DNA of 64,000 nucleotides from a virus (IMGVR_UViG_3300026097_000008:1-64000), one strand, 5' to 3'; numbered from the stretch's first letter, positions 1 through 12,258 are shown. Notes: generated from the sequence alone by a model not told the origin. Numbers and translations are program-made.

Positions 1-13
1 TATATACTTCTAG

Positions 14-26
14 TAAGCTATTGATA
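14..26 (-). promoter_or_regulatory. IHF consensus site
   Basis: Reverse complement TATCAATAGCTTA matches WATCAANNNNTTR exactly. Near-matches at 51-63, 113-125 and 330-342. Confidence 0.65.
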
Positions 27-183
27 TTGTTGGAGTTCAAGTTCACACACTAAGCTATTGTTGTTTATGGTGATTTGTTCGAACTGTGTCGCGGGGTCTA
101 ATAGAGCTTATAGAACAATGACTTATGATGTGTTGTTGAGGCTGTGCGTGAGGTATAGCTTCTAACTGTGTGTGAGGGGCCGT

Positions 184-242
184 TGTGGATAACGTTATAC
201 ACAGTGTAGGTTGTGGATAAACTGTGGATAAACTGTGGATAA
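184..242. promoter_or_regulatory. Cluster of 5 DnaA boxes
   Basis: TGTGGATAA (reverse complement TTATCCACA) at 184-192, 212-220, 223-231 and 234-242, plus TTATACACA at 195-203. The last three have an 11-bp period. Confidence 0.9.
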
Positions 243-275
243 CTTTTGCGAGCGAGAAGAACGGACAAACGAACG

Positions 276-303
276 GGTGCGCATAAGACATATTATGTTA
301 AAT
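276..303 (+). other. dif: dif-like XerC/XerD recombination site
   Basis: GGTGCGCATAA-GACATA-TTATGTTAAAT. Both 11-bp arms are identical to E. coli dif; only the 6-bp core differs. Confidence 0.9.
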
Positions 304-351
304 GTGTGTGCGAGGATTTTCCTCAACGTTTTCAAACACTTAGCGGATTGC

Positions 352-399
352 ATTTAACATAATCCCGTGTGTGTGCGCATATAAGTTATTATGTTAAAT
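352..399. other. Second dif-like site (372-399) plus inverted XerD arm (352-362)
   Basis: TGTGCGCATAT-AAGTTA-TTATGTTAAAT (XerC arm 9/11, XerD arm 11/11). ATTTAACATAA at 352-362 is an exact inverted XerD arm. Confidence 0.75.
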
Positions 400-416
400 T
401 GGGGCGAGGGGGCCGC

Positions 417-429
417 TAAGTTGTTGATT
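417..429 (-). promoter_or_regulatory. IHF consensus site
   Basis: Reverse complement AATCAACAACTTA is an exact WATCAANNNNTTR. It lies in an imperfect inverted repeat, 315-346/413-444. Confidence 0.7.
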
Positions 430-567
430 TTGTTGAGGGAAATCGATTTATAACCTCTTGTTTTTGCTAGTGTTCTTTCTGTGCCGTTTGTGCATTTTTT
501 AGTTGACAGCAGCACAAACTTGTAGTATAGTGTATATACAAGCTTAAACAATATAGAGGGCACTACT

Positions 568-828
568 ATGCAAACACAAACATACACAAACGCTGTTGCA
601 ACTGTTATTGCGTTTTACGCAAAGCAAATTGCAAACGCAAGCTACGACAGCGTAGCGGAAGCTAACGACTACAGCATAACAGACAACTGCGAAAAAATAC
701 AGTACTTGCTTGCGGAAAGTGCGCAACACACTACTGTGCAAAGTTTAGCAGTTGCCGCGCTTAACAGTGCAGCGGATACAGTAGTACGCGAGTGCATGTA
801 TACACAATTGCAAGCGCAAATTAATTAA
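568..828 (+). CDS. Early hypothetical protein (86 aa)
   Basis: Own promoter; GAGGGC at 556; ATG. Confidence 0.8.
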   Translation: MQTQTYTNAVATVIAFYAKQIANASYDSVAEANDYSITDNCEKIQYLLAESAQHTTVQSLAVAALNSAADTVVRECMYTQLQAQIN

Positions 829-901
829 AAAACACTTGACAACTGCGTGTACATATGCTATAGTGTATGTACACGTTAACAATAGCAAAGAGGGCAAACT
901 T

Positions 902-1078
902 ATGCTAAACAAACTTAGTACGCTTAAAGTTAAAAACGGACGCTATGCGCGAATGCAAGTAATTCGCATTTTGGATAATGCTGTACAGTATAGTGCGCTG
1001 TTTATTAAAAACGACGGCTATACAGAAAAGCGCATTTGCACTGTGCGTAATAACACTGTAGTAGCTTGGCAAAGTTAA
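902..1078 (+). CDS. Early hypothetical protein (58 aa)
   Basis: Promoter at 836; GAGGGC at 890. Start moved to ATG 902. Confidence 0.75.
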   Translation: MLNKLSTLKVKNGRYARMQVIRILDNAVQYSALFIKNDGYTEKRICTVRNNTVVAWQS

Positions 1079-1166
1079 CAAATTAATAGTAAAATACAAT
1101 TGTACATTGTAGCATGTGTGTGCTATAGTATACACGTACACTAACAAATAGCAAAGAGGGCTATAT

Positions 1167-1367
1167 ATGCAAAACACACAAACACTGCTACAACAGTATA
1201 ACAGCACCCGCCGTTTTTTACTTACGCTAAACGAAGCGCAACTGCATTTATTAATAGCTGCATTAGATGACAACAACTGCTTGCAAATAACACAAGCACA
1301 AGTGGACAGCGCATACGACGCAATAGACGAACGCACACGCATGCAATATGCACAACACACAAAATAA
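1167..1367 (+). CDS. Early hypothetical protein (66 aa)
   Basis: Promoter at 1101; GAGGGC at 1156. Confidence 0.8.
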   Translation: MQNTQTLLQQYNSTRRFLLTLNEAQLHLLIAALDDNNCLQITQAQVDSAYDAIDERTRMQYAQHTK

Positions 1368-1450
1368 TTTAAAAAACGGTTGACAGCACAGCAAACTTGT
1401 GCTATAGTATACACATACACTAAACAAACAATTGCAATAGAGGGCAAACT

Positions 1451-1588
1451 ATGCAAAAGCTTTTAAACAAAATTACTTTTTACTTTTTGCAACGTGCGTA
1501 TGCGCAAATGGAAGCAACGGGCGACTTGCAAAACGCAGACGACGTTGCGGAGCACGTAGAAGATTATTTTACATATTTTGTAAAATAA
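1451..1588 (+). CDS. Early hypothetical protein (45 aa, not in ORF track)
   Basis: Promoter at 1380; GAGGGC at 1440; MQKLLNKITF...YFVK*. Confidence 0.75.
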   Translation: MQKLLNKITFYFLQRAYAQMEATGDLQNADDVAEHVEDYFTYFVK

Positions 1589-1663
1589 CACTTGACATGT
1601 GTGTGTACTTGTGCTATAGTATACACACACTAAACAAACAATTGCAAAAATAGAGGGCTATAT

Positions 1664-2005
1664 ATGCAAACAATTAATGATACTACATACGTGCAAGCAC
1701 ATGATGCTGCAAACTTAATTACGTTTTTAGCTACAGAATTAGCTATGTATACAGCACGTGTAAAATACACACACGAAACTATTAATAGTATGTGTGTTAA
1801 ACAATTGTGTGATAATATTGATTTTTTAAACTGTGTATATAACGATTGTGTTAATAACACACAGCAACACGAAATGTTTAGTGTAATTGCTGTGTTATTT
1901 GCAGATGGTTATGCAGATGATATTTTAAACAATAATATATTTGACACGTTTAAAGAATTTTGTGCTATTAATAATTTTGAATATGACGAATACAAATATT
2001 TTTAA
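1664..2005 (+). CDS. Early acidic hypothetical protein (113 aa)
   Basis: Promoter at 1592; GAGGGC at 1653. Confidence 0.8.
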   Translation: MQTINDTTYVQAHDAANLITFLATELAMYTARVKYTHETINSMCVKQLCDNIDFLNCVYNDCVNNTQQHEMFSVIAVLFADGYADDILNNNIFDTFKEFCAINNFEYDEYKYF

Positions 2006-2098
2006 ACACTGTATAAATTAACAGTTGACAAGTGTGTGTATGTGTGCTACAATGTACACATACACTAAACAAACAATTGCAAAAATAGAGGGCTATAT

Positions 2099-2293
2099 AT
2101 GCAAAACAAGTACGCTACGCTTAAAGCACAACTGCTTGCAGTAATTGAAGCAGCAGATGATGCATACGATTTGACTGACGTAGATGAATATGCAGATGCA
2201 AGCAACGAATATGCGCTTGTGCTTGAAGAGATTGTGCAACTGTACGAAGCTGCTGATTTTGATACACAAAGCATTGTGCAAAACGCACTGTAA
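2099..2293 (+). CDS. Early highly acidic protein (64 aa)
   Basis: Promoter at 2025; GAGGGC at 2088; D/E-rich. Confidence 0.8.
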   Translation: MQNKYATLKAQLLAVIEAADDAYDLTDVDEYADASNEYALVLEEIVQLYEAADFDTQSIVQNAL

Positions 2294-2371
2294 AAAATAA
2301 CACTTGACATGTGTGTGCGTGTGTGCTATAGTATACACGTACACTACGCAAACAGCAATAGAGGGCAAACT

Positions 2372-2839
2372 ATGTACACATTTGCAAACACACTGCTTAC
2401 TAAACTTGCGGCATGCGAGCATGTTAACGTTGAACAGCGCGACAGCGAAGAATACGTTGTGACAGTAGACTTAGGCGGCGGCTATGCTGACAAGGACTGG
2501 GAAGGCGGCTACTGGGCTGACACAGTGCGCATTACGGACGAAACGCTAGAATTGCAGTTTAGCGTATTTGGTGGAGACAGCAACTGGAACGCTGACGATG
2601 ACTGCGATTACTGCATAGGCGAAGGCTACGTACACATGCACTACGCAGACTATGGCGAAGGCAACTTAGCATACACAAGTGCATTAGAAGATGCGATTAA
2701 CGATGCTATACAAACACGCACAAATGGCATACTGTATGCAGACGGAAGCGAGCAGGGCATGCAAGGCTACGACAGCGCAGACGAGTGCTATTTAAGTTTA
2801 GACATTGAAGAGTGGTACGAGGAGACTGTGCAAGCATAA
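2372..2839 (+). CDS. Early highly acidic protein (155 aa), possible DNA mimic
   Basis: Promoter at 2304; GAGGGC at 2361; start ATG 2372. Very D/E/Y-rich with few K/R. Confidence 0.8.
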   Translation: MYTFANTLLTKLAACEHVNVEQRDSEEYVVTVDLGGGYADKDWEGGYWADTVRITDETLELQFSVFGGDSNWNADDDCDYCIGEGYVHMHYADYGEGNLAYTSALEDAINDAIQTRTNGILYADGSEQGMQGYDSADECYLSLDIEEWYEETVQA

Positions 2840-2934
2840 AAATAAATTGCACTGCTGTTAAAAAAACACTTGACAGCAGTGCAAACTTGTGCTATAGTGT
2901 AAACATAAACTTAAACAAGCGAGAGGGCTACGCC

Positions 2935-3252
2935 ATGTTTTACGTATACGAGAAAGCAACCACTTATATTATCGGCAAGCAGGGCACACCGGATCATCGT
3001 GCTAGCTACAAGACAATGGCTGCGGCTAAGGCAGCACTCACACGCATTGCAAAGGCGAGTGGCTTAATGCCCGTGGATGAGAACTATCCCCTCTACACAC
3101 TAGGCATTGCAGAAGCTGCCTACTTCCACAAGTCGATTGAAAAGCAAGTCAAGCGAAAGGTGCTTGAGGGCTTTGGCGGCAAGGAATATTACGAACCCAT
3201 CAACACTCCCAACTACTGCTCGCCCAGCTCAGAAAGTTATTGGTCGATGTAA
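2935..3252 (+). CDS. Early hypothetical protein
   Basis: Promoter at 2870; GAGGGC at 2923; ends TPNYCSPSSESYWSM. Confidence 0.85.
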   Translation: MFYVYEKATTYIIGKQGTPDHRASYKTMAAAKAALTRIAKASGLMPVDENYPLYTLGIAEAAYFHKSIEKQVKRKVLEGFGGKEYYEPINTPNYCSPSSESYWSM

Positions 3253-3321
3253 AAAGAGGTTGACAGCGTAGCCGTTTGAGGCTATACTGTATATAACAGT
3301 TAGGCAAACGGAGGGCAATCC

Positions 3322-3564
3322 ATGCAAAACACATTTATAACAGACTACGGTATGTTTACTAGCGCAGGCAACTGTGCTGTGGACGAAATCGTTCGCGAAG
3401 CACGTGAGCTGGCAGGTGTAGACGGGCCAGTTAACCCTGTACAACAGGCCATCAACTACATGCTCAACGAACTGGAGTACCTAGGCAAGGAACACTTCGA
3501 AGAAGCAGAGGACACCGCGGTACGTGAAGCCGCACTGGCAGAGTTCTTCGCAGAGGAGGATTAA
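3322..3564 (+). CDS. Early acidic hypothetical protein
   Basis: Promoter at 3260; GAGGGC at 3311. Confidence 0.85.
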   Translation: MQNTFITDYGMFTSAGNCAVDEIVREARELAGVDGPVNPVQQAINYMLNELEYLGKEHFEEAEDTAVREAALAEFFAEED

Positions 3565-3638
3565 AAAGAGGTTGACAGGGTAGCACTTCGGTGCTACACT
3601 GTATATACAGTTAAGCAATAGCAAAGAGGGTAAACGCT

Positions 3639-3914
3639 ATGAACACAGTCCAAACAGCAATCAACGCAATCCGCAACATGAACAACGATGAGCTGAACCA
3701 GATTATCGAAGCGGTCAAACTCCAACGCACATACCTAGCACGTTCGACAGCAAAGGCTTTGGCTGTTGGTGACACTGTGCAATTTACAGGACGCGGTGGC
3801 AATACAGTGACTGGTACGGTCACAAAGATCAATCGCAAGACAGTGGTAGTAGACGAAGGCTTCACACGCTGGAAGGTGCCAGCTAGCCTGCTGTCTTTAA
3901 CGGAGACTGCATAA
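3639..3914 (+). CDS. Early protein with SH3/KOW-like beta C-terminus
   Basis: LAVGDTVQF...GTVTKINRKTVVV...WKVP pattern; promoter at 3572. Confidence 0.75.
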   Translation: MNTVQTAINAIRNMNNDELNQIIEAVKLQRTYLARSTAKALAVGDTVQFTGRGGNTVTGTVTKINRKTVVVDEGFTRWKVPASLLSLTETA

Positions 3915-4033
3915 TGTATGAAGTCCTACTAAATGGCAAGAGGGTTGCGCTATGCAACTCTCTCCAACTTGCAGAAAGCTATGTTCGATCAACCCCGGGT
4001 GCTACAGTCGTAGGCCCCGCTGCTAGGAGATAA
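3914..4033 (+). CDS. Small hypothetical protein (39 aa)
   Basis: TAATG overlap with upstream gene; GGAG upstream. Confidence 0.5.
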   Translation: MYEVLLNGKRVALCNSLQLAESYVRSTPGATVVGPAARR

Positions 4034-4036
4034 GAT

Positions 4037-4612
4037 ATGCCCAACTGGTGCTACAACAATCTAGACATTACCGCAAAGACACCTGAGCAGATGGAGATGC
4101 TTGATCGTGTGAGCAAGGCAGAAGCCGCGGATGGTTTCATCAGTATGTTCCTTCCGCTGCCTGAGGCACTCAAGGAAACTACAAGCCCTGCACCACAGCC
4201 AGGGCAAGCCAACTACAAAGGCGAACAGCCAGTGGTGGACGGTTTCGACAACTGGTATGACTGGCAAGTGGCCAAGTGGGGAACCAAGTGGGATCCAGAA
4301 GTCATGGACTGTGATTACGATGGCGAAACTCTTACTGTATCGTTCGACTCAGCTTGGGCACCGCCCATTGCGTTCTACGAGTGGTTAGTAGAACAAGGCT
4401 ACGAAGTAAGTGCCAACTACTACGAGCCAGGTATGGACTACGCTGGGGAGTGGGTCAACGGCGATGACTTTATGCTAGAGAATGTGAGCGACCTTGCTCG
4501 CCAGACTGAGGAGTCACTGTCCACTCGCGAGTATGACATCCTCGAGATGTTTGGCATCTTTGAAGAGGTTGCTCAATACGACGAAGAAGAAATGTTAGAC
4601 GACGGTGCATAA
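4037..4612 (+). CDS. YubB/DUF1281-family ferredoxin-like protein
   Basis: MPNWCxN, WYDW...WGTKWD, FDSAWAPP and YYEPG motifs; AGGAG RBS. Confidence 0.8.
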   Translation: MPNWCYNNLDITAKTPEQMEMLDRVSKAEAADGFISMFLPLPEALKETTSPAPQPGQANYKGEQPVVDGFDNWYDWQVAKWGTKWDPEVMDCDYDGETLTVSFDSAWAPPIAFYEWLVEQGYEVSANYYEPGMDYAGEWVNGDDFMLENVSDLARQTEESLSTREYDILEMFGIFEEVAQYDEEEMLDDGA

Positions 4613-4671
4613 AACGGTTGACAAACTGGGCTCTCCTTGCTATACTGTATTCATAGTGAGGAGGGCATCCA

Positions 4672-4809
4672 ATGAAGCAGTCAAAGATCAAAGTTCGCAA
4701 CAAGGCGTTTGGCCAAGCTCGTTCAGAAGGACGACTAGCCGCTCGCGTGGAGCGTGACCGCACCAAGTACCATCGCAAAGAAAAACACAAAAACCGGTTG
4801 ACAGCCTAG
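4672..4809 (+). CDS. Small basic protein, ArfA-like (45 aa, not in ORF track)
   Basis: Promoter at 4618; GAGGGC at 4661; RVERDRTKYHRKEKH. Confidence 0.65.
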   Translation: MKQSKIKVRNKAFGQARSEGRLAARVERDRTKYHRKEKHKNRLTA

Positions 4810-4857
4810 GCACTAGGTGCTATACTTTATATAACAGTTAGGGCATTGGAGGGCAAG

Positions 4858-5145
4858 ATGGCTTATTACACTTACACTAAAGATCCAATCGGGTGCTTCG
4901 TTGAGAAGGACACCGGCAACTATTTCGAATATAGTGACATCGGCGACGATCCTATGATGTACGAAGAAAACGGTGGCTTCACTCACAAGGTATGGGTAGG
5001 CGGCGGTGGCGTATGCGGCGACCAAGGATATCGCTATGCCGTGGTTATGAAGACAGTGGCCCTCATCTGTGTGGATGAAGATGACGAAGGACTTCCGGTA
5101 GTAGAGAAGTGGTACTTGAAAAAGAACACGGAGTATGCGGTATGA
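4858..5145 (+). CDS. Early hypothetical protein
   Basis: Promoter at 4798; GAGGGC at 4849; start ATG 4858. Confidence 0.8.
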   Translation: MAYYTYTKDPIGCFVEKDTGNYFEYSDIGDDPMMYEENGGFTHKVWVGGGGVCGDQGYRYAVVMKTVALICVDEDDEGLPVVEKWYLKKNTEYAV

Positions 5146-5351
5146 GCTTGCAATGTCTTACAGAGACCACAGAGGATCTACTGCCTCACACCTATCTAGT
5201 AGACGAAAAGCGAGGCAAGATGTTGGCCTACCGCAAGAGCTCAGGTGAGATTGATGTCTTCTCCAAGCCACTCTCCTTTGGAAAGAAATACAGAAAGTTC
5301 AAAAAAGTGGTTGACAACGAACTGGTTCGAGCATATACTGTATACAGTTAA
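5142..5351 (+). CDS. Hypothetical protein
   Basis: ATGA overlap; GGAG RBS. Confidence 0.7.
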   Translation: MSLQCLTETTEDLLPHTYLVDEKRGKMLAYRKSSGEIDVFSKPLSFGKKYRKFKKVVDNELVRAYTVYS

Positions 5352-5375
5352 ACAATAAAGCAGAGGGCTTACAAA

Positions 5376-5852
5376 ATGGGTACACGTTCAGCAATTGGTT
5401 ACAAGACTCCAGAAGGCAAGATCCGTGCAAAGTACTGCCACTATGATGGCTACGTTGCACACAACGGACGCATCCTGCAGGAGCACTACCAAGCCGCATA
5501 CAAGATCGCACAGTTGGTAGAACTAGGCGACATGAGCACACTTGACGCAGAGATTGGTGTACAAGTAGACTTTGACGATCGTGACGCACACGAAGGACAG
5601 TGTGTGTTCTATGCTCGCGACAGAGGCGAGACAGGTACAGATGCACAAGAGTTTGACACTGTGCAGGAGTTTGTTGACTACTATGCGTCAGCAGGATGCG
5701 AATACTTCTACTTGCACACAGCCGCAGGTTGGATTGTACATGACCGCTACAATGTAGGCAAAGACTCGTTTGGCTACCCTGTGTTTGACGACTTGGAGAC
5801 TTGTGTGGCGCTTGAAGTGTCACGCCTCAAAGCACAAGGCTACGATATCTAA
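5376..5852 (+). CDS. Conserved phage early protein (MGTRS...YCHYDGY type)
   Basis: Promoter at 5311; GAGGGC at 5364; motif common in phage hypothetical proteins. Confidence 0.85.
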   Translation: MGTRSAIGYKTPEGKIRAKYCHYDGYVAHNGRILQEHYQAAYKIAQLVELGDMSTLDAEIGVQVDFDDRDAHEGQCVFYARDRGETGTDAQEFDTVQEFVDYYASAGCEYFYLHTAAGWIVHDRYNVGKDSFGYPVFDDLETCVALEVSRLKAQGYDI

Positions 5853-5916
5853 AAAGAGGTTGACAGTCCTACGGGGCTGTCATATACTTAATGTAAGAGG
5901 AGTAAATAAGTTTCAA

Positions 5917-5993
5917 GCGCCTGTAGCTCAATTGGTTAGAGCGTCGGACTCATAATCCGGGGGTTGGGGGTTCAAGTCCCTCCGGGCGCACCA
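5917..5993 (+). tRNA. tRNA with CAT anticodon, probably Ile2 (else elongator Met)
   Basis: Cloverleaf; TCGGA-CT-CAT-AA-TCCGG; encoded CCA; paired 1-72; C4-G69/C5-G68 as in TilS substrates. Confidence 0.9.
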
Positions 5994-5997
5994 TATA

Positions 5998-6074
<77 letters not shown>

Positions 6075-6179
6075 AACAACGACAGCGCACCTTAGCAATG
6101 GCGATGAGCTAGGAGATCAAACTGCGACTGTCAGGCTCTGGGACTATTAATAGACTTGCCTGGGGTCGCGCAATCCATT

Positions 6180-6266
6180 GCTCGCGTGGTGGAATTGGTA
6201 GACACAAGGGACTTAAAATCCCTCGCCCCAAAAGGCATGCCGGTTCGAGTCCGGCCGCGAGTACCA
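6180..6266 (+). tRNA. tRNA-Leu(TAA)
   Basis: AGGGA-CT-TAA-AA-TCCCT; long variable arm; GTTCGAGT; CCA. Confidence 0.95.
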
Positions 6267-6269
6267 AGT

Positions 6270-6330
6270 TTGCGGAAGTTGATCTCAGAATGTGCCCTCG
6301 TTCTTAGTAGATCCTTCCGCAATATTTTTT
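6270..6330 (+). ncRNA. Hairpin/terminator displaying GCCCUC in its loop
   Basis: TTGCGGAAG/CTTCCGCAA, GATCT/AGATC and AGAA/TTCT stems; loop TGTGCCCTCG; T-tract follows. Confidence 0.7.
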
Positions 6331-6409
6331 GAAAAAAATGGTTGACAAACCTGGGCATTGGTGGTATACTGTATATAACAGTTAGGAAATAGACATTAGA
6401 GGGCACACT

Positions 6410-6808
6410 ATGTCAATCACACTTCTTCAACACATTGAGTCACTTAACGCACAAGCTGATCTGCTCATGGAGCAGGAGCCAGGCTTGTGGATGAGCAAGT
6501 ACACGGACGACATGAGCCATTGGGCAGACATGGGTGTGTACACTGTGGAGGACTTCAAGCGTAGTCAGTTGATCAATGGTATCTCAGATGCATCAAAGGA
6601 CCTCTACGGTTGCCGCATGCGCCTTGCGTGGGATGAGATGAGCATTGAGCAGATGGAGTCTACATACGAGAACATCTGTGCTCAGTTGAACGCACAGTAT
6701 GAAGAGGAGAAGGCTGCGGCTGAGTGGGAAGCAGAGTGTAAGCGTGGATTGCCAGATGACTGTAAGCCACTGCCCTACGAAGACTACGCATACCTGGAGG
6801 AGGTGTAA
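6410..6808 (+). CDS. Early hypothetical protein
   Basis: Promoter at 6342; GAGGGC at 6399. Confidence 0.85.
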   Translation: MSITLLQHIESLNAQADLLMEQEPGLWMSKYTDDMSHWADMGVYTVEDFKRSQLINGISDASKDLYGCRMRLAWDEMSIEQMESTYENICAQLNAQYEEEKAAAEWEAECKRGLPDDCKPLPYEDYAYLEEV

Positions 6809-6809
6809 G

Positions 6810-6887
6810 ATGGAACTGCTGATCGCATTCACACCCGCACTGGTCATCTTCGTTCCTATGGCGATTGCAATCATGCTTCGCCCGTAA
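6810..6887 (+). CDS. Small membrane peptide (25 aa)
   Basis: GGAGGAGG RBS; MELLIAFTPALVIFVPMAIAIMLRP. Confidence 0.6.
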   Translation: MELLIAFTPALVIFVPMAIAIMLRP

Positions 6888-6959
6888 TTAGGGGTTGACA
6901 AACGATCATTTAGATCATATACTGTATAGACAATGAAGCAAACGATGAGGGCAAACATC

Positions 6960-7118
6960 ATGACAGACTACAGAGATTTCGCAATTGAGTTGGTTGAGGA
7001 TATGGGCTACTCCGCAGAGGATATGCTCACAGCCGCGCTGAAGTATATGAGCCAATCCGACGTTGAAGATATGCTTCGCGTCAACGAGTATCCACAACCT
7101 TGTGAGGAGGAAGTGTAA
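6960..7118 (+). CDS. Small acidic early protein
   Basis: Promoter at 6895; GAGGGC at 6947; start ATG 6960. Confidence 0.75.
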   Translation: MTDYRDFAIELVEDMGYSAEDMLTAALKYMSQSDVEDMLRVNEYPQPCEEEV

Positions 7119-7333
7119 TGGAATACTTCACCACAGTCCGCGCAGAGGTGTATATCACCCTGCGAAGCGAGCGTCCATTGGACCGAGAAGAAGTTCACAC
7201 AGTGCTGAGCGAGATGCACTACGAATTCGGAGACGATGAAGGCTACGGCCTCGACGACGGCGAGAGCACTCACATCTGTGCTACACGCTGGGAAGATAAT
7301 GAAATTACTCATATGAATCGGGAGGACGCATAA
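7118..7333 (+). CDS. Hypothetical protein
   Basis: TAATG coupling; GAGGAGG RBS. Confidence 0.75.
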   Translation: MEYFTTVRAEVYITLRSERPLDREEVHTVLSEMHYEFGDDEGYGLDDGESTHICATRWEDNEITHMNREDA

Positions 7334-7494
7334 TGTTCCAGCAATACTTTGTATACTACGATGGCCGGTTCGCTGGCACTGTGATGGCACTGTCAGAGTC
7401 TAGTGCAAAGGACAAAGGCTGTCAACTCGCAGGTGTAAGCGCAAGTGCATACACTGGTAAGGCTCGAAGATTAGTTGAAGTTGTTCGCAGATAA
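7333..7494 (+). CDS. Hypothetical protein (53 aa, not in ORF track)
   Basis: TAATG coupling; GGAGG RBS. Confidence 0.65.
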   Translation: MFQQYFVYYDGRFAGTVMALSESSAKDKGCQLAGVSASAYTGKARRLVEVVRR

Positions 7495-7556
7495 TGGTTG
7501 ACAAACTTGGATAAGACTGTATACTATTATTAATAGTTAGGACAAACGAGGGCGAT

Positions 7557-8558
7557 ATGCAAAACATTAAAATCACAGAAGGGTACTACAAGATTCGAGG
7601 CAAAGACACATCAGTGGCTGGACTTGTGTTTCCCCTAGTAGAAGAATTTAAAGTAGGCAACAAAGGCGGCTATGTCACAGTAGACGGCCGAGCAATTGCA
7701 GGCTTCCCAGACCGTAATATCAAAATCAGTTGCGGTGGCCCGGAGGACTACGAGCTTGTTGGTGCAGACGTATCAGTCAGCCAGCGAGAAGAGACAGACG
7801 AAGAGATCATTGAGCGCCTGCGAGAGCGTTTCGACATGCTAAAGGAAATGACCAAAGCTGTCAAGAAAGGCGATGTGCGAGCGATGATTGTTTCGGGTCC
7901 TCCGGGCGTAGGTAAGAGTCACGGCGTAGAAGAAGTGCTAGACCGCTACAAGATGATGGAGACACTTGGCGGCACCAAGAAGTACGAAGTCGTCAAAGGT
8001 GCTATGAGCCCGATCGGATTGTACGTAAAGCTTTTCAAATATGCAGACAAAGACAATGTATTGGTGTTCGACGACTGTGATTCAATCTTCGACGAGCCGC
8101 TTGCTCTTAATATTTTAAAAGCTGCGCTTGATAGCAAGAAGACACGTACCATTCACTGGAACACAGATTCATTCAAGTTGCGCAACGAAGGAGTGCCAGA
8201 CAGTTTCAAGTTCGAAGGTAGCTGTATCTTTATTACCAACCTGAAGTTTGATAACGTTAAGAGCAAGAAACTACGTGATCACCTTTCAGCACTAGAGAGC
8301 CGTTGTCACTATATGGATCTTACCATTGACACAGAGCACGAGAAGATGCTCAGAATCAAACAGGTGATCCGCGACGGTATGCTAGATACATATGAGTTCG
8401 ATGAAGAACTCAACGAAGAGATTATCGACTTTGTCGATATAAACAAGAAGCGACTGCGTGAGCTGTCATTAAGAACAGTACTTAAGGTCGCCGACTTGGC
8501 CAAAGCTTTTCCCAGCAATTGGGAGGCGATGGCTGAAAACACTGTGATGTCGCGTTAA
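7557..8558 (+). CDS. AAA+ ATPase
   Basis: Walker A GPPGVGKS, Walker B VLVFDDCD, sensor-1 IFITN, ALESR; promoter at 7498; GAGGGC at 7548. Confidence 0.9.
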   Translation: MQNIKITEGYYKIRGKDTSVAGLVFPLVEEFKVGNKGGYVTVDGRAIAGFPDRNIKISCGGPEDYELVGADVSVSQREETDEEIIERLRERFDMLKEMTKAVKKGDVRAMIVSGPPGVGKSHGVEEVLDRYKMMETLGGTKKYEVVKGAMSPIGLYVKLFKYADKDNVLVFDDCDSIFDEPLALNILKAALDSKKTRTIHWNTDSFKLRNEGVPDSFKFEGSCIFITNLKFDNVKSKKLRDHLSALESRCHYMDLTIDTEHEKMLRIKQVIRDGMLDTYEFDEELNEEIIDFVDINKKRLRELSLRTVLKVADLAKAFPSNWEAMAENTVMSR

Positions 8559-8713
8559 TGCCCTCGACGCTATCACAGTTAATAGATATGATTATTGAGC
8601 AACAGCCCTCACTGCTCTGATCATATCACAAGGTGTCAGATGCAAGCCCTCACGCTCTGCACCGCTCTAGCCCTAGCAGGATGTGCCCTCGTCCAATGCT
8701 AGGGCTTTTTTTT
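8541..8713 (+). ncRNA. Four-hairpin candidate sRNA/3'UTR with GCCCUC loops, ending in an intrinsic terminator
   Basis: GCCCTC at 8560, 8605, 8646 and 8685, each at the apex of a different stem. The last stem, AGCCCTAGCA/TGCTAGGGCT, is followed by a T-run. Confidence 0.8.
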
Positions 8714-8788
8714 GATCTTTTCGGTTGACAGCACTGCTGAGTGGTGCTATAGTATATGTATAGTTAGAACAAACGGAGGGCAATCCAA

Positions 8789-9010
8789 ATGTCAACAGAA
8801 CTTAGAAATGTACCAGGATGTGTAGCACAGAATGAATTGCGTCAGACTCGCTTCTGGGGTGGCAAGAATCGTCAGACCTGTGTACAAGTCACAAACCGCA
8901 ATGGTGAGTTCCTGCAACTGGACAAGTTCCAAGCTCGTGCATTGGCTGTAGAGTTGATGCTGTTCGCAGAAGGTCGTGAAGTTGAAGAATTCGAAATGGA
9001 GGAAGTGTAA
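8789..9010 (+). CDS. Early hypothetical protein
   Basis: Promoter at 8725; GAGGGC at 8776. Confidence 0.8.
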   Translation: MSTELRNVPGCVAQNELRQTRFWGGKNRQTCVQVTNRNGEFLQLDKFQARALAVELMLFAEGREVEEFEMEEV

Positions 9011-9156
9011 TGGACCTTTGGGATCGAGTGATTGAGCAACTGCGCAAAGACATTGAAGAGGGCGAAGTGATGCCCATGTACGAAATGCTTCAGCAGGTGC
9101 CCAAGGATGTGTTGATCGCATACTTGCCGGAAGAGGAAGCAGCAGATGTTGGATGA
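9010..9156 (+). CDS. Small acidic hypothetical protein (48 aa)
   Basis: TAATG coupling; GGAGG RBS. Confidence 0.6.
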   Translation: MDLWDRVIEQLRKDIEEGEVMPMYEMLQQVPKDVLIAYLPEEEAADVG

Positions 9157-9247
9157 TCCATGTGATGATTGGTCGCAATTAGGGGTTGACAAAGCACACA
9201 AGTGATGGTATACTGTATATAACAGTTAGGGCAAAGAGGGAATACAA

Positions 9248-9427
9248 ATGCATATCAACGACATCTACGCATTGCGCACAGAGTTAGCCAAAGTATTATG
9301 CAACGAATCTGTGGACCGCACAGCCATCCGTGCATTGTTAAGTGCCGCACAAGAAGAGATCACAGAGTTCGAGAAGTACATGGAACAACGAGCACTTGAA
9401 GAAGAAGCACGGGAGTACGCAGAATGA
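9248..9427 (+). CDS. Hypothetical protein (59 aa)
   Basis: Promoter at 9186; GAGGGA upstream. Confidence 0.7.
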   Translation: MHINDIYALRTELAKVLCNESVDRTAIRALLSAAQEEITEFEKYMEQRALEEEAREYAE

Positions 9428-9534
9428 CACAGTACAACGAGAAGGCAGTAGACGAGGCAATCAAACGTGATCCTCGTATCAAAGGCAAAGAAGCCAAGCT
9501 GATCAAAGCACTATTGAAAGGTCGCAAACAATGA
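9424..9534 (+). CDS. Small basic protein (36 aa)
   Basis: ATGA overlaps at both ends; GGAG RBS. Confidence 0.6.
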   Translation: MTQYNEKAVDEAIKRDPRIKGKEAKLIKALLKGRKQ

Positions 9535-9806
9535 ACCAAACATATTTTGAAGCAACCCCGCAACAGAAGAAGCTGGCAGACATCGGACGAGCCATGATGG
9601 ACTTCTCCGAAGAGTACGGTAAGATCCACGGATTGAAAGCTGTCACAGACGACGGCCTGCGCACTCTCAACAACCTCAGCCAAGTAGGCTATATGCTGAC
9701 CACAGTTGGGGCTACCTTTGGTAAAAACTCTAAGAGCTTCTCAGAGGACGAGAAGAAATTAATTGCAGATTTCATTAACAAAAAGGTTGACATCGAGCGC
9801 AAGTGA
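9531..9806 (+). CDS. Hypothetical protein
   Basis: ORF coupled to the upstream gene. Confidence 0.75.
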   Translation: MNQTYFEATPQQKKLADIGRAMMDFSEEYGKIHGLKAVTDDGLRTLNNLSQVGYMLTTVGATFGKNSKSFSEDEKKLIADFINKKVDIERK

Positions 9807-9847
9807 TGGTATACTGTATATAACAGTTAGGGCAAAGGGCAAATACT

Positions 9848-10090
9848 ATGAAGCGCGATACACTGATCAAAAACCTAAACTCCAAGTTTAACCTTAACGC
9901 TGTTCCTTCAGAAGAGTGGGACGGTGCTGAAGGCGGCATTTGGATCCGCGACAACATCTGCAAGCCGGAAACAGACTACTACCCATATGCGGATGGCACT
10001 ATGCAGGACAACAAGTTGAATCGCTACTTGCGCAAGGCGGGTTGGTTTGCTGAGCCGTACGACAGCGAAACAATAATGATTTGGAAATAA
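9848..10090 (+). CDS. Early hypothetical protein
   Basis: Promoter at 9787; AGGGC occurs twice in the leader. Confidence 0.8.
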   Translation: MKRDTLIKNLNSKFNLNAVPSEEWDGAEGGIWIRDNICKPETDYYPYADGTMQDNKLNRYLRKAGWFAEPYDSETIMIWK

Positions 10091-10156
10091 GAGGTTGACA
10101 AGTGCCAAGGATGGCACTATACTTTATTAAACAGTTAAGCAAAAGAGGGCAAACTA

Positions 10157-10429
10157 ATGCGCACACTTAAAAACTTCATACAAGACAACAACCGCTGGAT
10201 GGCACTGTTCGGCAAGGCGGACATGACTTTCCCACTTACACAATCAGATGTAGATGACTTAGCACGTACACTAGACGCCAAGCTATCACCTGAGAACCTA
10301 CACTGCGATGGAGAGATCACTGTAGCAGAAGCCAATCGCAAGTACAACCGTTTGGCAACAACCTATCGCGAGCTGTGTGAGTACTGCGACTCAAAAGGCT
10401 TGCGTGAACCAACTGTATACGAACTCTAA
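10157..10429 (+). CDS. Early hypothetical protein (LSPENLHCDGE motif)
   Basis: Promoter at 10095; GAGGGC at 10145. Confidence 0.85.
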   Translation: MRTLKNFIQDNNRWMALFGKADMTFPLTQSDVDDLARTLDAKLSPENLHCDGEITVAEANRKYNRLATTYRELCEYCDSKGLREPTVYEL

Positions 10430-10498
10430 GAGGTTGACAAACAGTCAGCTTGAGCATATACTGTATAGACAATGAAGCAAACACAGAGGGCAAACTGT

Positions 10499-10840
10499 AT
10501 GAACATTCAAGAACTTAAGAACATCCTAGTTGAAGCACAGAACGCGGCAACAGCCAAGAGCATGGAAATGTATACTCAACACGGCGACGGTTGGGCATGT
10601 GGCTTTGCTTGGGTAAACATCTACAAGCATGAAGGCAAAGCAATCAAAGGCAACACCAAGCTGGGCAAGCTGCTCAAGCAAGCGGGTGTGCGTCAAGACT
10701 ACACACGAGCATTCCAGGTGTGGGGTGGTGAGTGGTACAACGGACAGAGCATTGACATCAAGGAAGCTGGTGCTAGGGCTTATGCAGATGTGCTCAAGCG
10801 TTATGGCTTCGAAGCTTACGCAGGCAGCAGACTAGACTAA
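10499..10840 (+). CDS. Conserved phage protein (CGFAWV motif)
   Basis: Promoter at 10434; GAGGGC at 10486; start ATG 10499. Confidence 0.85.
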   Translation: MNIQELKNILVEAQNAATAKSMEMYTQHGDGWACGFAWVNIYKHEGKAIKGNTKLGKLLKQAGVRQDYTRAFQVWGGEWYNGQSIDIKEAGARAYADVLKRYGFEAYAGSRLD

Positions 10841-10863
10841 CTGTTAAGCAACACTTAATAGTT

Positions 10864-10944
10864 GAGAGGTAGTCAAATGATTTGGCTACCTTTTTTATGC
10901 ACAACACACAGTCAAAAAAAAGCACAGCCCAAATGCTGTGCTTG
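10864..10944. terminator. Convergent intrinsic terminators
   Basis: AGGTAGTCAAA/TTTGGCTACCT plus T-run on +. A-run followed by AAGCACAGC/GCTGTGCTT for the - strand. Confidence 0.75.
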
Positions 10945-10961
10945 TATGTTAGTAGCGTATG

Positions 10962-11135
10962 CTACACGTCAAAGTTTAACAGTACTGCTTCCTCATCATA
11001 TGTGTAGTGTTCCGCATTGTACAGTTCAAGTTCTTTTGCGTTATAGTGCGAGAACGCAATAACGGGCAAGTGCTGTGGTAGTGCTTGTAGTTGTGCTACT
11101 AGTTGCGCTACTGTTAGTTGCTGTTGCTGTTGCAT
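10962..11135 (-). CDS. Early hypothetical protein (57 aa), convergent with the main early array
   Basis: Minus-strand promoter TTGACT-N17-TATTAT (11195-11167); GGAG RBS; MQQQQQLTVAQL. Confidence 0.75.
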   Translation of the reverse strand: MQQQQQLTVAQLVAQLQALPQHLPVIAFSHYNAKELELYNAEHYTYDEEAVLLNFDV

Positions 11136-11469
11136 ATGTGCTACTCCGTTTTGTTTACTGTTTATATATAATAGCACAACACACTAAAAAGTCAATCAAA
11201 ATTATTTTGAAAAAATTCTCAATGAAATCAATGGGGTCGGAGGTATAATTAGAAAATTTCTGAGGGGGTCGGCGTATACTATTGTTTTTGCTACAGTTTT
11301 TAGTTGCGCTTAATGATCTCCTTCTCTTCTCCCTTTTCTACCTTTCTACACACTACACAAAAATGGGGTGAGTGCAAATCACCACCTCACTTCTGTAAGT
11401 ACTTCACCTAAAAAAACTGCGCAGCAAATTTTTTACCCTGCAGGACCCATTTCGGGCTATAAGTACTGT

Positions 11470-11544
11470 ATGGAACCTTTATCTGCAATTGGTATAGTAT
11501 TCTTCACGGCTATAGTACTTGTACTACTAGGAGTGTTTGATTAA
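11470..11544 (+). CDS. Small hydrophobic peptide (24 aa)
   Basis: TATAAGTA-ctgt-ATG; MEPLSAIGIVFFTAIVLVLLGVFD. Confidence 0.45.
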   Translation: MEPLSAIGIVFFTAIVLVLLGVFD

Positions 11545-11773
11545 CCTCACTCACAGCGAACGCGAACTCTACACGAATACGAGCTAGCGAGTAAGAGTGT
11601 GTGAGTAGCGTGAGATGTCAGACGTAGCCATACGGCTGCTAAATACTCTTAGTACACACAGTGCTATGCACGGCAGTTTGAACATATGTCATACTTGCTA
11701 GTTGTTTATAGCTAGATAAGCTCAGCAGACTAGCCGCTGGCACTGTGTGTATGTTCAACTAGAGTATTCTTAT

Positions 11774-11989
11774 ATGTACACAGTCAAACTCATATACGAT
11801 CCAGAACCATACACTACTACGCTTAAAGAGTCAATCACATACTGTGCTACCATAGAACTATTTCTCAAAGGTATACACACAGTACAAGCAAGTGCTACAC
11901 GCATAGTGTTTGAGAGTGATCGTGACCGTATGCTAGGCTTGATATACTTGTCAGAGTCAACCAGCTTTACAGCAGTATGCATAGACTAG
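11774..11989 (+). CDS. Hypothetical protein
   Basis: ORF only; start uncertain. Confidence 0.45.
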   Translation: MYTVKLIYDPEPYTTTLKESITYCATIELFLKGIHTVQASATRIVFESDRDRMLGLIYLSESTSFTAVCID

Positions 11990-12258
11990 TACACGGTGAG
12001 ACTGTGTGTCAAAAGACTCATCTTTTAGTCGATCAGCATTTGCGGGGTGTTTTAGGGCTATAAAAACAGTCTGTCGTTATGGTTGAGACATTTTAGATTT
12101 TAAGTGTGCGCACAGTATCGTTGTACTGGAGAGCTGTTAAGTGCGTAGTTTAAGAGGGTAAAATTTTTGCTAAAATCTAGCTTCGCTAGCTGCTTCGCAG
12201 CTCTAGGCTTTTGCGCTGACCGCTGTGCGGCTTTTCTGGCGCGGACGCTTCGCGCTTG

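Follow-up and report, generated by a model that had tools for sequence, protein, structure and literature searches.

Hairpin loops that follow an early ATPase gene in an uncultured marine jumbo phage complement the leader tag of its early genes, pointing to a candidate antisense RNA

What purpose is served by four tandem hairpins that directly follow an early ATPase gene, each presenting GCCCTC at its apex, in a phage whose early genes are preceded by the complementary hexamer? The locus lies in a stretch of 64,000 nucleotides, herein called the window, taken from the start of an IMG/VR virus record of 155 kb. The gene content of the window is that of a myovirus, with a tail sheath (1,129 aa), a DNA polymerase and a DnaB-type helicase, and the source is an uncultured marine jumbo phage with a host that is likewise uncultured. 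Cultured relatives, as judged by protein similarity, are distant only, namely the PA5oct-like phages (ATPase about 44-47% and sheath about 45% against the window) and Atu_ph07 (sheath 43%). A blastn search with the ATPase/array locus against 50,697 phage records gave no match.

The early region occupies bases 500-10,500 on the + strand and contains 20 near-consensus sigma70 promoters (TTGACA-17-TATA[C/G]T, 11/12 matches). Behind each comes a leader about 30 nt long and then a small gene, with the exception of the promoter of a tRNA operon. An 18-nt block, TACTGTATATAACAGTTA, is common to six of the early promoters (3285-3302, 4823-4840, 6367-6384, 9211-9228, 9812-9829 and 10120-10137; 0 expected by chance). 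It covers the -10 element and the transcript start and holds the inverted repeat CTGT-N5-ACAG, and may be bound as an operator by a repressor of the early promoters, or else be a conserved transcript 5' end.

Counting both strands, GCCCTC occurs 28 times in the window against 10.6 +/- 3.1 expected, and 0/100 shuffles reach 28. GAGGGC accounts for 20 copies on the + strand, all within 556-10491, of which 18 stand 3-9 nt 5' of an ATG. The tags are as follows.

556, 890, 1156, 1440, 1653, 2088, 2361, 2923 and 3311, + strand: GAGGGC tags before ATGs, first half
4661, 4849, 5363, 6399, 6947, 7548, 8776, 10145 and 10486, + strand: GAGGGC tags before ATGs, second half
Genes at 3639, 9248 and 9848, + strand: near-variant tags GAGGGT, GAGGGA and AAGGGC, respectively

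All tags lie in short leaders, each behind one of the about 20 near-consensus sigma70 promoters. Across 692 main-clade leaders, the distance of the tag varies less with respect to the ATG (sd 2.8) than with respect to the -10 element (sd 4.4). The tag, be it GAGGGC, GAGGGT, GAGGGA or AAGGGC, is restricted to the first gene behind each early promoter, and the GAGGGC form is found at 18 of the 20 promoter-proximal early genes. Translationally coupled downstream early genes have plain GGAG/GAGGAGG sites, and the minus-strand middle/late genes do not use the tag. Within the invariant core AGGGC, GAGG or AGG alone is available to the ribosome; the standard 16S 3' tail offers no counterpart to the subsequent GC(A/U).

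The ATPase gene is itself one of the tagged early genes, and its 3'UTR carries the hairpin array.

7498-7525, + strand: sigma70-type early promoter, TTGACA-16-TATACT, of the ATPase gene and 3'UTR array
7548-7553, + strand: the ATPase gene's own leader tag, GAGGGC (GAGGGCG, 3 nt 5' of the ATG at 7557)
7557-8558, + strand: early P-loop/AAA-type ATPase gene, 333 aa, phrog_1250, the last codons of which are the 5' arm of hairpin 1
8541-8579, + strand: hairpin 1 (predicted fold), loop AAUGCCCUC at 8557-8565, with the ATPase stop codon TAA (8556-8558) inside
8585-8627, + strand: hairpin 2 (predicted fold), loop ACAGCCCUCAC at 8602-8612
8632-8663, + strand: hairpin 3 (predicted fold), loop AAGCCCUCAC at 8644-8653
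8669-8713, + strand: hairpin 4 (predicted fold), the intrinsic terminator, 8669-8706, with T-run 8706-8713
8725-8781, + strand: next early promoter, TTGACA-17-TATAGT (8725-8753), and GAGGGC tag (8776-8781) of the gene with its ATG at 8789

The ATPase assignment comes from phrog_1250 (E 1e-81), with Pfam AAA_16 and AAA below cut-off, and comparison of the protein with PDB sequences and NCBIfam gave no match. The array has a minimum free energy of -68.7 kcal/mol, compared with -46.9 kcal/mol in shuffles (z = -4.7; 0/200 shuffles as stable). GCCCTC stands at 8560, 8605, 8646 and 8685, and all four hexamers are predicted to be unpaired, in apical loops, which come in two versions (UGCCCUC x2, AGCCCUC x2). 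Hairpin 4 has the conserved inner unit GGAUG-UGCCCU-CGUCC with loop UGCCCU at 8684-8689 and, being G+C-rich and followed by a U-run (T-run to 8713), has the make-up of an intrinsic terminator; hairpins 1-3 have no U-run. The element is bounded on its 3' side by the next promoter, starting at 8725, and the only internal promoter candidate is a weak 9/12 match at 8564-8592. Two small ORFs within the array, of 35 and 31 aa, were dismissed because neither has a ribosome-binding site. A sequence-only reading of this DNA had described four stem-loops directly behind the ATPase gene, the first containing its stop codon, with unrelated stems, GCCCTC at the four positions given above and loops of the UGCCCUC and AGCCCUC types, and had identified GAGGGC as the exact complement of GCCCUC before the ATG of 18 early genes. 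The sequence, the predicted fold with its unpaired hexamers and the count of tags in the window agree with that description throughout.

Elsewhere on the + strand of the early region, GCCCTC is found at two positions only, 5059 (within an ORF) and 6294 (the loop of a tRNA-operon terminator). The former, at 5059-5064 inside ORF 4858-5145, is flanked by ACAG/CUGU and may have arisen by chance or form a weak additional loop. The latter belongs to the one early transcription unit whose promoter (5860-5888) drives no protein gene and instead directs tRNA-Met, tRNA-Arg and tRNA-Leu.

5917-5993, + strand: tRNA-Met (CAU)
5998-6074, + strand: tRNA-Arg (UCU)
6180-6266, + strand: tRNA-Leu (UAA)
6270-6330, + strand: fifth GCCCUC-loop hairpin, tRNA-operon trailer/terminator, with the hairpin at 6270-6322

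This fifth hairpin has its loop UGCCCU at 6293-6298 and a T-run at 6325-6330 (T6), again the arrangement of an intrinsic terminator, with a minimum free energy of -22.7 kcal/mol (z -5.2). A GCCCUC-apex terminator/trailer hairpin lies directly 3' of the last tRNA in at least 25 relatives, where the stems are unrelated. Since a tagged leader is missing from the tRNA-operon transcript, action of its loop in cis is excluded, and this copy of the loop argues for action in trans. The 105-nt spacer between tRNA-Arg and tRNA-Leu (6075-6179) is without a match in Rfam and could represent a further small RNA.

The complementarity sorts the genes of the window by class. The best duplex between a loop and the start region averages -15.4 kcal/mol for the 20 promoter-proximal genes, all of which reach -12.2 kcal/mol or better, as compared with means of -9.7 kcal/mol for 10 internal early genes and -7.0 kcal/mol for 32 middle/late genes (Mann-Whitney p = 1e-9 for the class difference).

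Relatives were collected by four ATPase-seeded collection scans, which yielded about 240 loci and 162 distinct 3'UTRs; one metagenome scan is represented by the best 80 of 543 relatives, and more distant codes were reached through clade-specific queries. Among these ATPase 3'UTRs, which come from marine phage contigs, 126 of the 162 hold one to five GCCCU(C/U) motifs, 369 in total. Fully 344 of the motifs (93%) fall in apical loops of the minimum free energy fold, and the motif has a mean probability of being unpaired of 0.93, compared with 0.34 elsewhere in the UTR. When the criterion was tightened to a small, well-closed apical loop, 69% of the motifs qualified, compared with 4-8% when the flanks are shuffled and the motif is kept in place. 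For 94 distinct hairpins with the commonest loop, of 6 nt, the five pairs of the closing helix are paired in 93% of cases, with many double changes, and the covariation score is 0.75 against 0.20 shuffled and 0.03-0.17 slid. Because these 94 hairpins were selected as predicted to pair, the flank-shuffle test is the fairer control.

The number of hairpins is four in the window and two to five in relatives, and their stems are of different sequence and co-vary. At the loop, the consensus begins with U (60%), A (25%) or C (15%), never G, followed by GCCCUC(A/G); it mirrors the leader consensus, which across 692 main-clade leaders is AGGGC followed by A (79%), U (16%), G (3%) or C (2%). The commonest loop is just 6 nt long and closed by G-C, and such a small loop may limit pairing to 5-6 bp. 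Several hairpin subtypes are conserved past the hexamer, among them GGAUG-UGCCCU-CGUCC (34 copies), GGACCGCCCUCAUCC (28), AGUGUGCCCUCGCUA (21), GCCCUCACGCUCUGC and GGAUGUGCCCUCGUCC, and this extra conservation may reflect a protein partner or a processing signal. Taken together, the comparisons support the array as a conserved 3'UTR RNA element with loops predicted to be unpaired.

Array and tag occur together or are absent together, given that the more distant, AT-rich relatives, an outgroup (L211-L250) along with L212 and L246, retain the ATPase gene (protein identity to the L147 query about 59-62%) and have neither; these loci have no bearing on whether loop and leader pair. PA5oct has a gap of only 43 nt after its ATPase homologue, and no array. 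One locus, L037, had the appearance of a tag without an array, which was ruled out when the array was found beyond an insertion of roughly 640 bp that separates it from the ATPase gene. The insertion (L037:2192-2830) contains a 125-aa minus-strand ORF, the last ATPase codons are repeated after it, and it looks like a homing-endonuclease-type mobile gene.

The two partners change together between clades. The main clade combines GCCCUC loops with (G/A)AGGGC(A/U) leaders, 3-8 nt 5' of the ATG. In a sister clade, clade 2 (12 distinct 3'UTRs/contigs; ATPase about 62% identical to that of the window), GAGGGC and GCCCTC are both absent. Its early leaders read (A)AGGAGCGA(A), i.e., GGAGCGA(A), and two hairpins of its ATPase 3'UTR present the 9-nt loop AUUCGCUCC, which complements those leaders exactly, on closing stems that vary by contig (CCG/CGG, CUG/CAG, CCCGG/CCGGG, GUUG/CAAC). 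The match share was defined as the proportion of promoter-proximal leaders in which a stretch of 6 nt or more is perfectly complementary to a loop:

Main-clade loops, own-locus leaders: 77%
Main-clade loops, clade-2 leaders: 1.5%
Clade-2 loops, own-locus leaders: 66%
Clade-2 loops, main-clade leaders: 5%

Reverse and same-sense controls gave 0-8%. Placed on the ATPase tree, the loop/leader codes are 107 G/G, 9 C2/C2 and 0 discordant, so that GCCCUC goes with GAGGGC and UUCGCUCC with GGAGCGAA. Smaller variants point the same way as this switch. The L134 array has three GCCCUU loops together with AAGGGC/GAAGGG leaders, while its sister L176 has GCCCUC. In L147/149, loop 1 (UAGCCCUCUC) complements the ATPase leader GAGAGGGCUA over 10 nt, and a second loop contains UGCUCC, which matches GGAGCA leaders. 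Flanking positions show a weak correlation inside the main clade (rho about 0.24, kinship ignored), and the independent co-variation events are therefore few: a single clean switch, with two or three others that are partial. A perfect 6-nt loop match is missing from about a quarter of the promoter-proximal leaders, and AAGGGC leaders form no more than 5-6 bp with GCCCUC loops.

The claim of the earlier reading that the loops are antisense to the early-gene leader motif thus withstands comparison, with 77% of own-locus leaders matched, and co-variation of loop and leader hexamer in relatives, which it had named as a check, came out positive. We regard the antisense relation of loops and leaders as strongly supported on comparative grounds, and it is very probable that early protein synthesis is controlled by pairing between them. 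Judged by sequence, both leader types consist of a short Shine-Dalgarno core with a 3' extension that matches the loops and not the 16S rRNA.

Our preferred explanation, to which we assign a probability of roughly 0.6, is that the array is an antisense RNA carried on a 3'UTR, probably acting in trans, which occludes the ribosome-binding site of the first gene behind each early promoter. It has what would be expected of a trans-acting anti-SD small RNA, namely a seed that is predicted to be unpaired, is complementary to several ribosome-binding sites and co-varies with them in relatives. The regulatory RNAs would be the 3'UTR of the ATPase mRNA, with four loops, and the trailer of the early tRNA operon, with one. 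Their (U/A)GCCCUC loops would pair with the (G/A)AGGGC(A/U) tag, 3-8 nt 5' of the start codon. The tag consists of a weak Shine-Dalgarno core (GAGG) and an extension, GC[A/U], complementary to the loops and not to the 16S rRNA tail, so that the RNA would out-compete the 30S subunit on the tagged class alone; host mRNAs and the internal, middle and late genes of the phage should stay unaffected. With the extension, the RNA would have 6-9 bp as opposed to 3-4 for the ribosome, which would explain both the class specificity and the conservation of the extension. Because the pairing covers the Shine-Dalgarno core, the RNA should block 30S binding, and coupled downstream genes would follow the blocked first gene.

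We infer that the RNA accumulates in stable form, acts in trans and represses. The likeliest outcome would be that translation of the early class is shut down while the stable structured RNA builds up, possibly followed by destabilisation of the mRNAs. A compact, terminator-ended RNA should outlive short, A-rich mRNAs. Such stability would matter, as the array promoter is one of about 20 equally strong promoters and shut-off would thus need an RNA much stabler than the mRNAs. Build-up of the RNA could end the early phase in the manner of the RegA protein in T4 (PMC3014915). The negative-feedback timer proposed in the earlier reading would be one possible use of such an RNA.

Other explanations of the same data have to be set against this one. 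The loops may pair with the leaders exactly as proposed and yet have a positive or protective effect on the early mRNAs, by shielding the leader from a nuclease (a RegB-like SD cutter or RNase E), by acting as a decoy or by delivery to ribosomes. Complementarity and co-variation are blind to the sign of the effect, and T4 does use an SD-cutting nuclease on early mRNAs (PMC3014915); however, the pairing covers the Shine-Dalgarno core 3-8 nt from the ATG, where known cases block 30S binding, and no RegB-like gene was identified here, so we consider a protective role unlikely. Pairing could also be confined to cis, the 3'UTR loops folding back on the ATPase leader to autoregulate one gene. The tag is always present on the ATPase gene, loop 1 of L147/149 complements the ATPase leader over 10 nt, and 5'-3' UTR pairing in icaR offers a precedent (PMC3868564). 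The own leader is indeed slightly better matched than the others, though hardly so (6.8 vs 6.5 nt, p = 0.002). Against this, two to five loops would be directed at one leader, the match extends to 77% of all promoter-proximal leaders, and the identical loop recurs on the tRNA-operon trailer, whose transcript has no tagged leader; a purely cis role therefore seems to us distinctly improbable.

The layout, with its identical loops on variable stems, is multivalent and would also suit a protein-binding sponge or assembly platform like CsrB/RsmZ, leader complementarity then being incidental or secondary, and the subtypes conserved beyond the hexamer (GGAUGUGCCCUCGUCC, GGACCGCCCUCAUCC, GCCCUCACGCUCUGC) fit this idea. 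Nevertheless, loop and leader switch together between clades, which a protein site would not require of its complement, and the loops are C-rich, with none of the repeated GGA (ANGGA) that CsrB/RsmZ loops hold for CsrA/RsmA, and without a match in Rfam; we give this explanation very little weight. Hardly credible is an array that regulates nothing, being either a stack of terminator/stability hairpins or a set of duplex-DNA protein sites in both orientations. Hairpin 4 does close the array as a bona fide intrinsic terminator, and two transcription units lie on either side, but terminators need no fixed loop, and arms that vary and compensate around an invariant asymmetric centre are the reverse of what a duplex operator shows, so that the centre can be relevant only as a single strand. 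A further idea, which we also hold to be very unlikely, is that the loops serve as an orthogonal anti-SD in trans or as a lineage-specific code, a private decoding channel in place of a brake. The phage would then address its own early messages only, or exclude co-infecting relatives that share the code, and divergence of the code between clades would act like heteroimmunity. This idea starts from a resemblance of the loops to the 16S rRNA 3' tail with upstream bases altered, GAU-UCG-CUCC in clade 2 for GAU-CAC-CUCC in 16S, and U-GC-CCUC in the main clade for U-CA-CCUC.

To place the candidate antisense RNA among known systems, Rfam was scanned at two levels. At gathering thresholds, positions 1-12000 yielded three tRNAs and nothing else, and cmscan of 8000-9300 with E up to 10 gave chance-level matches only, far below gathering scores. 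No match was obtained to RsaE/RoxS, RNAIII, C4 antisense RNA, CsrB/RsmZ or any other family, and literature searches found no description of this hairpin-array element. The earlier statement that no phage system with such a layout was known nevertheless needs amending, as the cuckoo/CcsR RNAs share the architecture. These small RNAs of Alphaproteobacteria (RSs0680, alpha-r14, SmelA075/A099), like the array, comprise two to four adjacent hairpins with a shared anti-SD-like loop motif on highly variable stems (PMC4615179; PMC8034643), and both end in a terminator hairpin. The array, with four adjacent same-loop hairpins on variable stems, conforms to this plan. It departs from it in the loop motif, which is CCUCCUCCC in the cuckoo RNAs as opposed to GCCCUC or UUCGCUCC in these phages (full loops (U/A/C)GCCCUC(A/G) or AUUCGCUCC), and in the upstream gene, a small DUF1127 protein for the cuckoo family as opposed to a 333-aa AAA-type ATPase. 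Furthermore, cuckoo RNAs are chromosomal and stress-induced whereas the array is phage-borne, neither a private SD extension nor a co-varying loop/target code is reported for them, and the two have no sequence or Rfam relation. The array would work like a cuckoo RNA but, with its different loop motif, gene context and taxon, is no member of the family; what is new relative to cuckoo/CcsR is the phage setting, the private SD extension and the co-evolving code.

Other systems share single features with the array. The c4 antisense RNA of phages P1 and P7 has loops that pair with the ribosome-binding region of its target genes, and loop and target differ together between related phages, giving phage-specific specificity. 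It belongs to the immunity of temperate phages, with a single operon (icd-ant) under its control. Its structure differs from that of the array, and Rfam gave no c4 match in the array region. RoxS/RsaE, RNAIII and SprX of the Firmicutes are stand-alone genes aimed at ordinary Shine-Dalgarno sequences of host genes. Like the array, they present several C-rich single-stranded regions, mostly loops, and in RoxS/RsaE-type RNAs these pair with the Shine-Dalgarno sequences of many mRNAs and block initiation (PMC4005690, PMC3053349); no homology to the array is seen, as there is no Rfam match. In the icaR mRNA of Staphylococcus aureus, an anti-SD motif in the 3'UTR pairs with the Shine-Dalgarno sequence and represses translation (PMC3868564), though this is a single motif acting in cis on its own mRNA, whereas here 4 + 1 loops face about 20 tagged leaders. 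The fifth hairpin, for its part, is a tRNA-operon 3' trailer that would be freed by tRNA processing, like 3'ETS-leuZ, to which it has no sequence relation. In E. coli, 3'ETS-leuZ is a regulatory RNA derived from a tRNA-operon trailer that sponges small RNAs. Closest in proposed outcome are the T4 RegA repressor and RegB nuclease, which bring about class-wide post-transcriptional shut-off of early mRNAs at ribosome-binding sites (PMC3014915), but these are proteins and the array is RNA.

Should the pairing prove functional, one small RNA code would time a whole gene class in a large, abundant group of marine jumbo phages, represented by hundreds of metagenome contigs, and the array would be an RNA counterpart of T4 RegA. 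A short Shine-Dalgarno core with an extension read by the phage RNA only would let a regulator gain specificity while ribosome recognition stays undisturbed. The natural code pairs GAGGGCA/UGCCCUC and GGAGCGAA/UUCGCUCC offer a test of orthogonality and are possible synthetic-biology parts. The cuckoo-type multi-hairpin anti-SD architecture would be extended from alphaproteobacterial chromosomes to viruses, and anti-leader RNAs may be a common, overlooked layer in the timing of phage gene expression.
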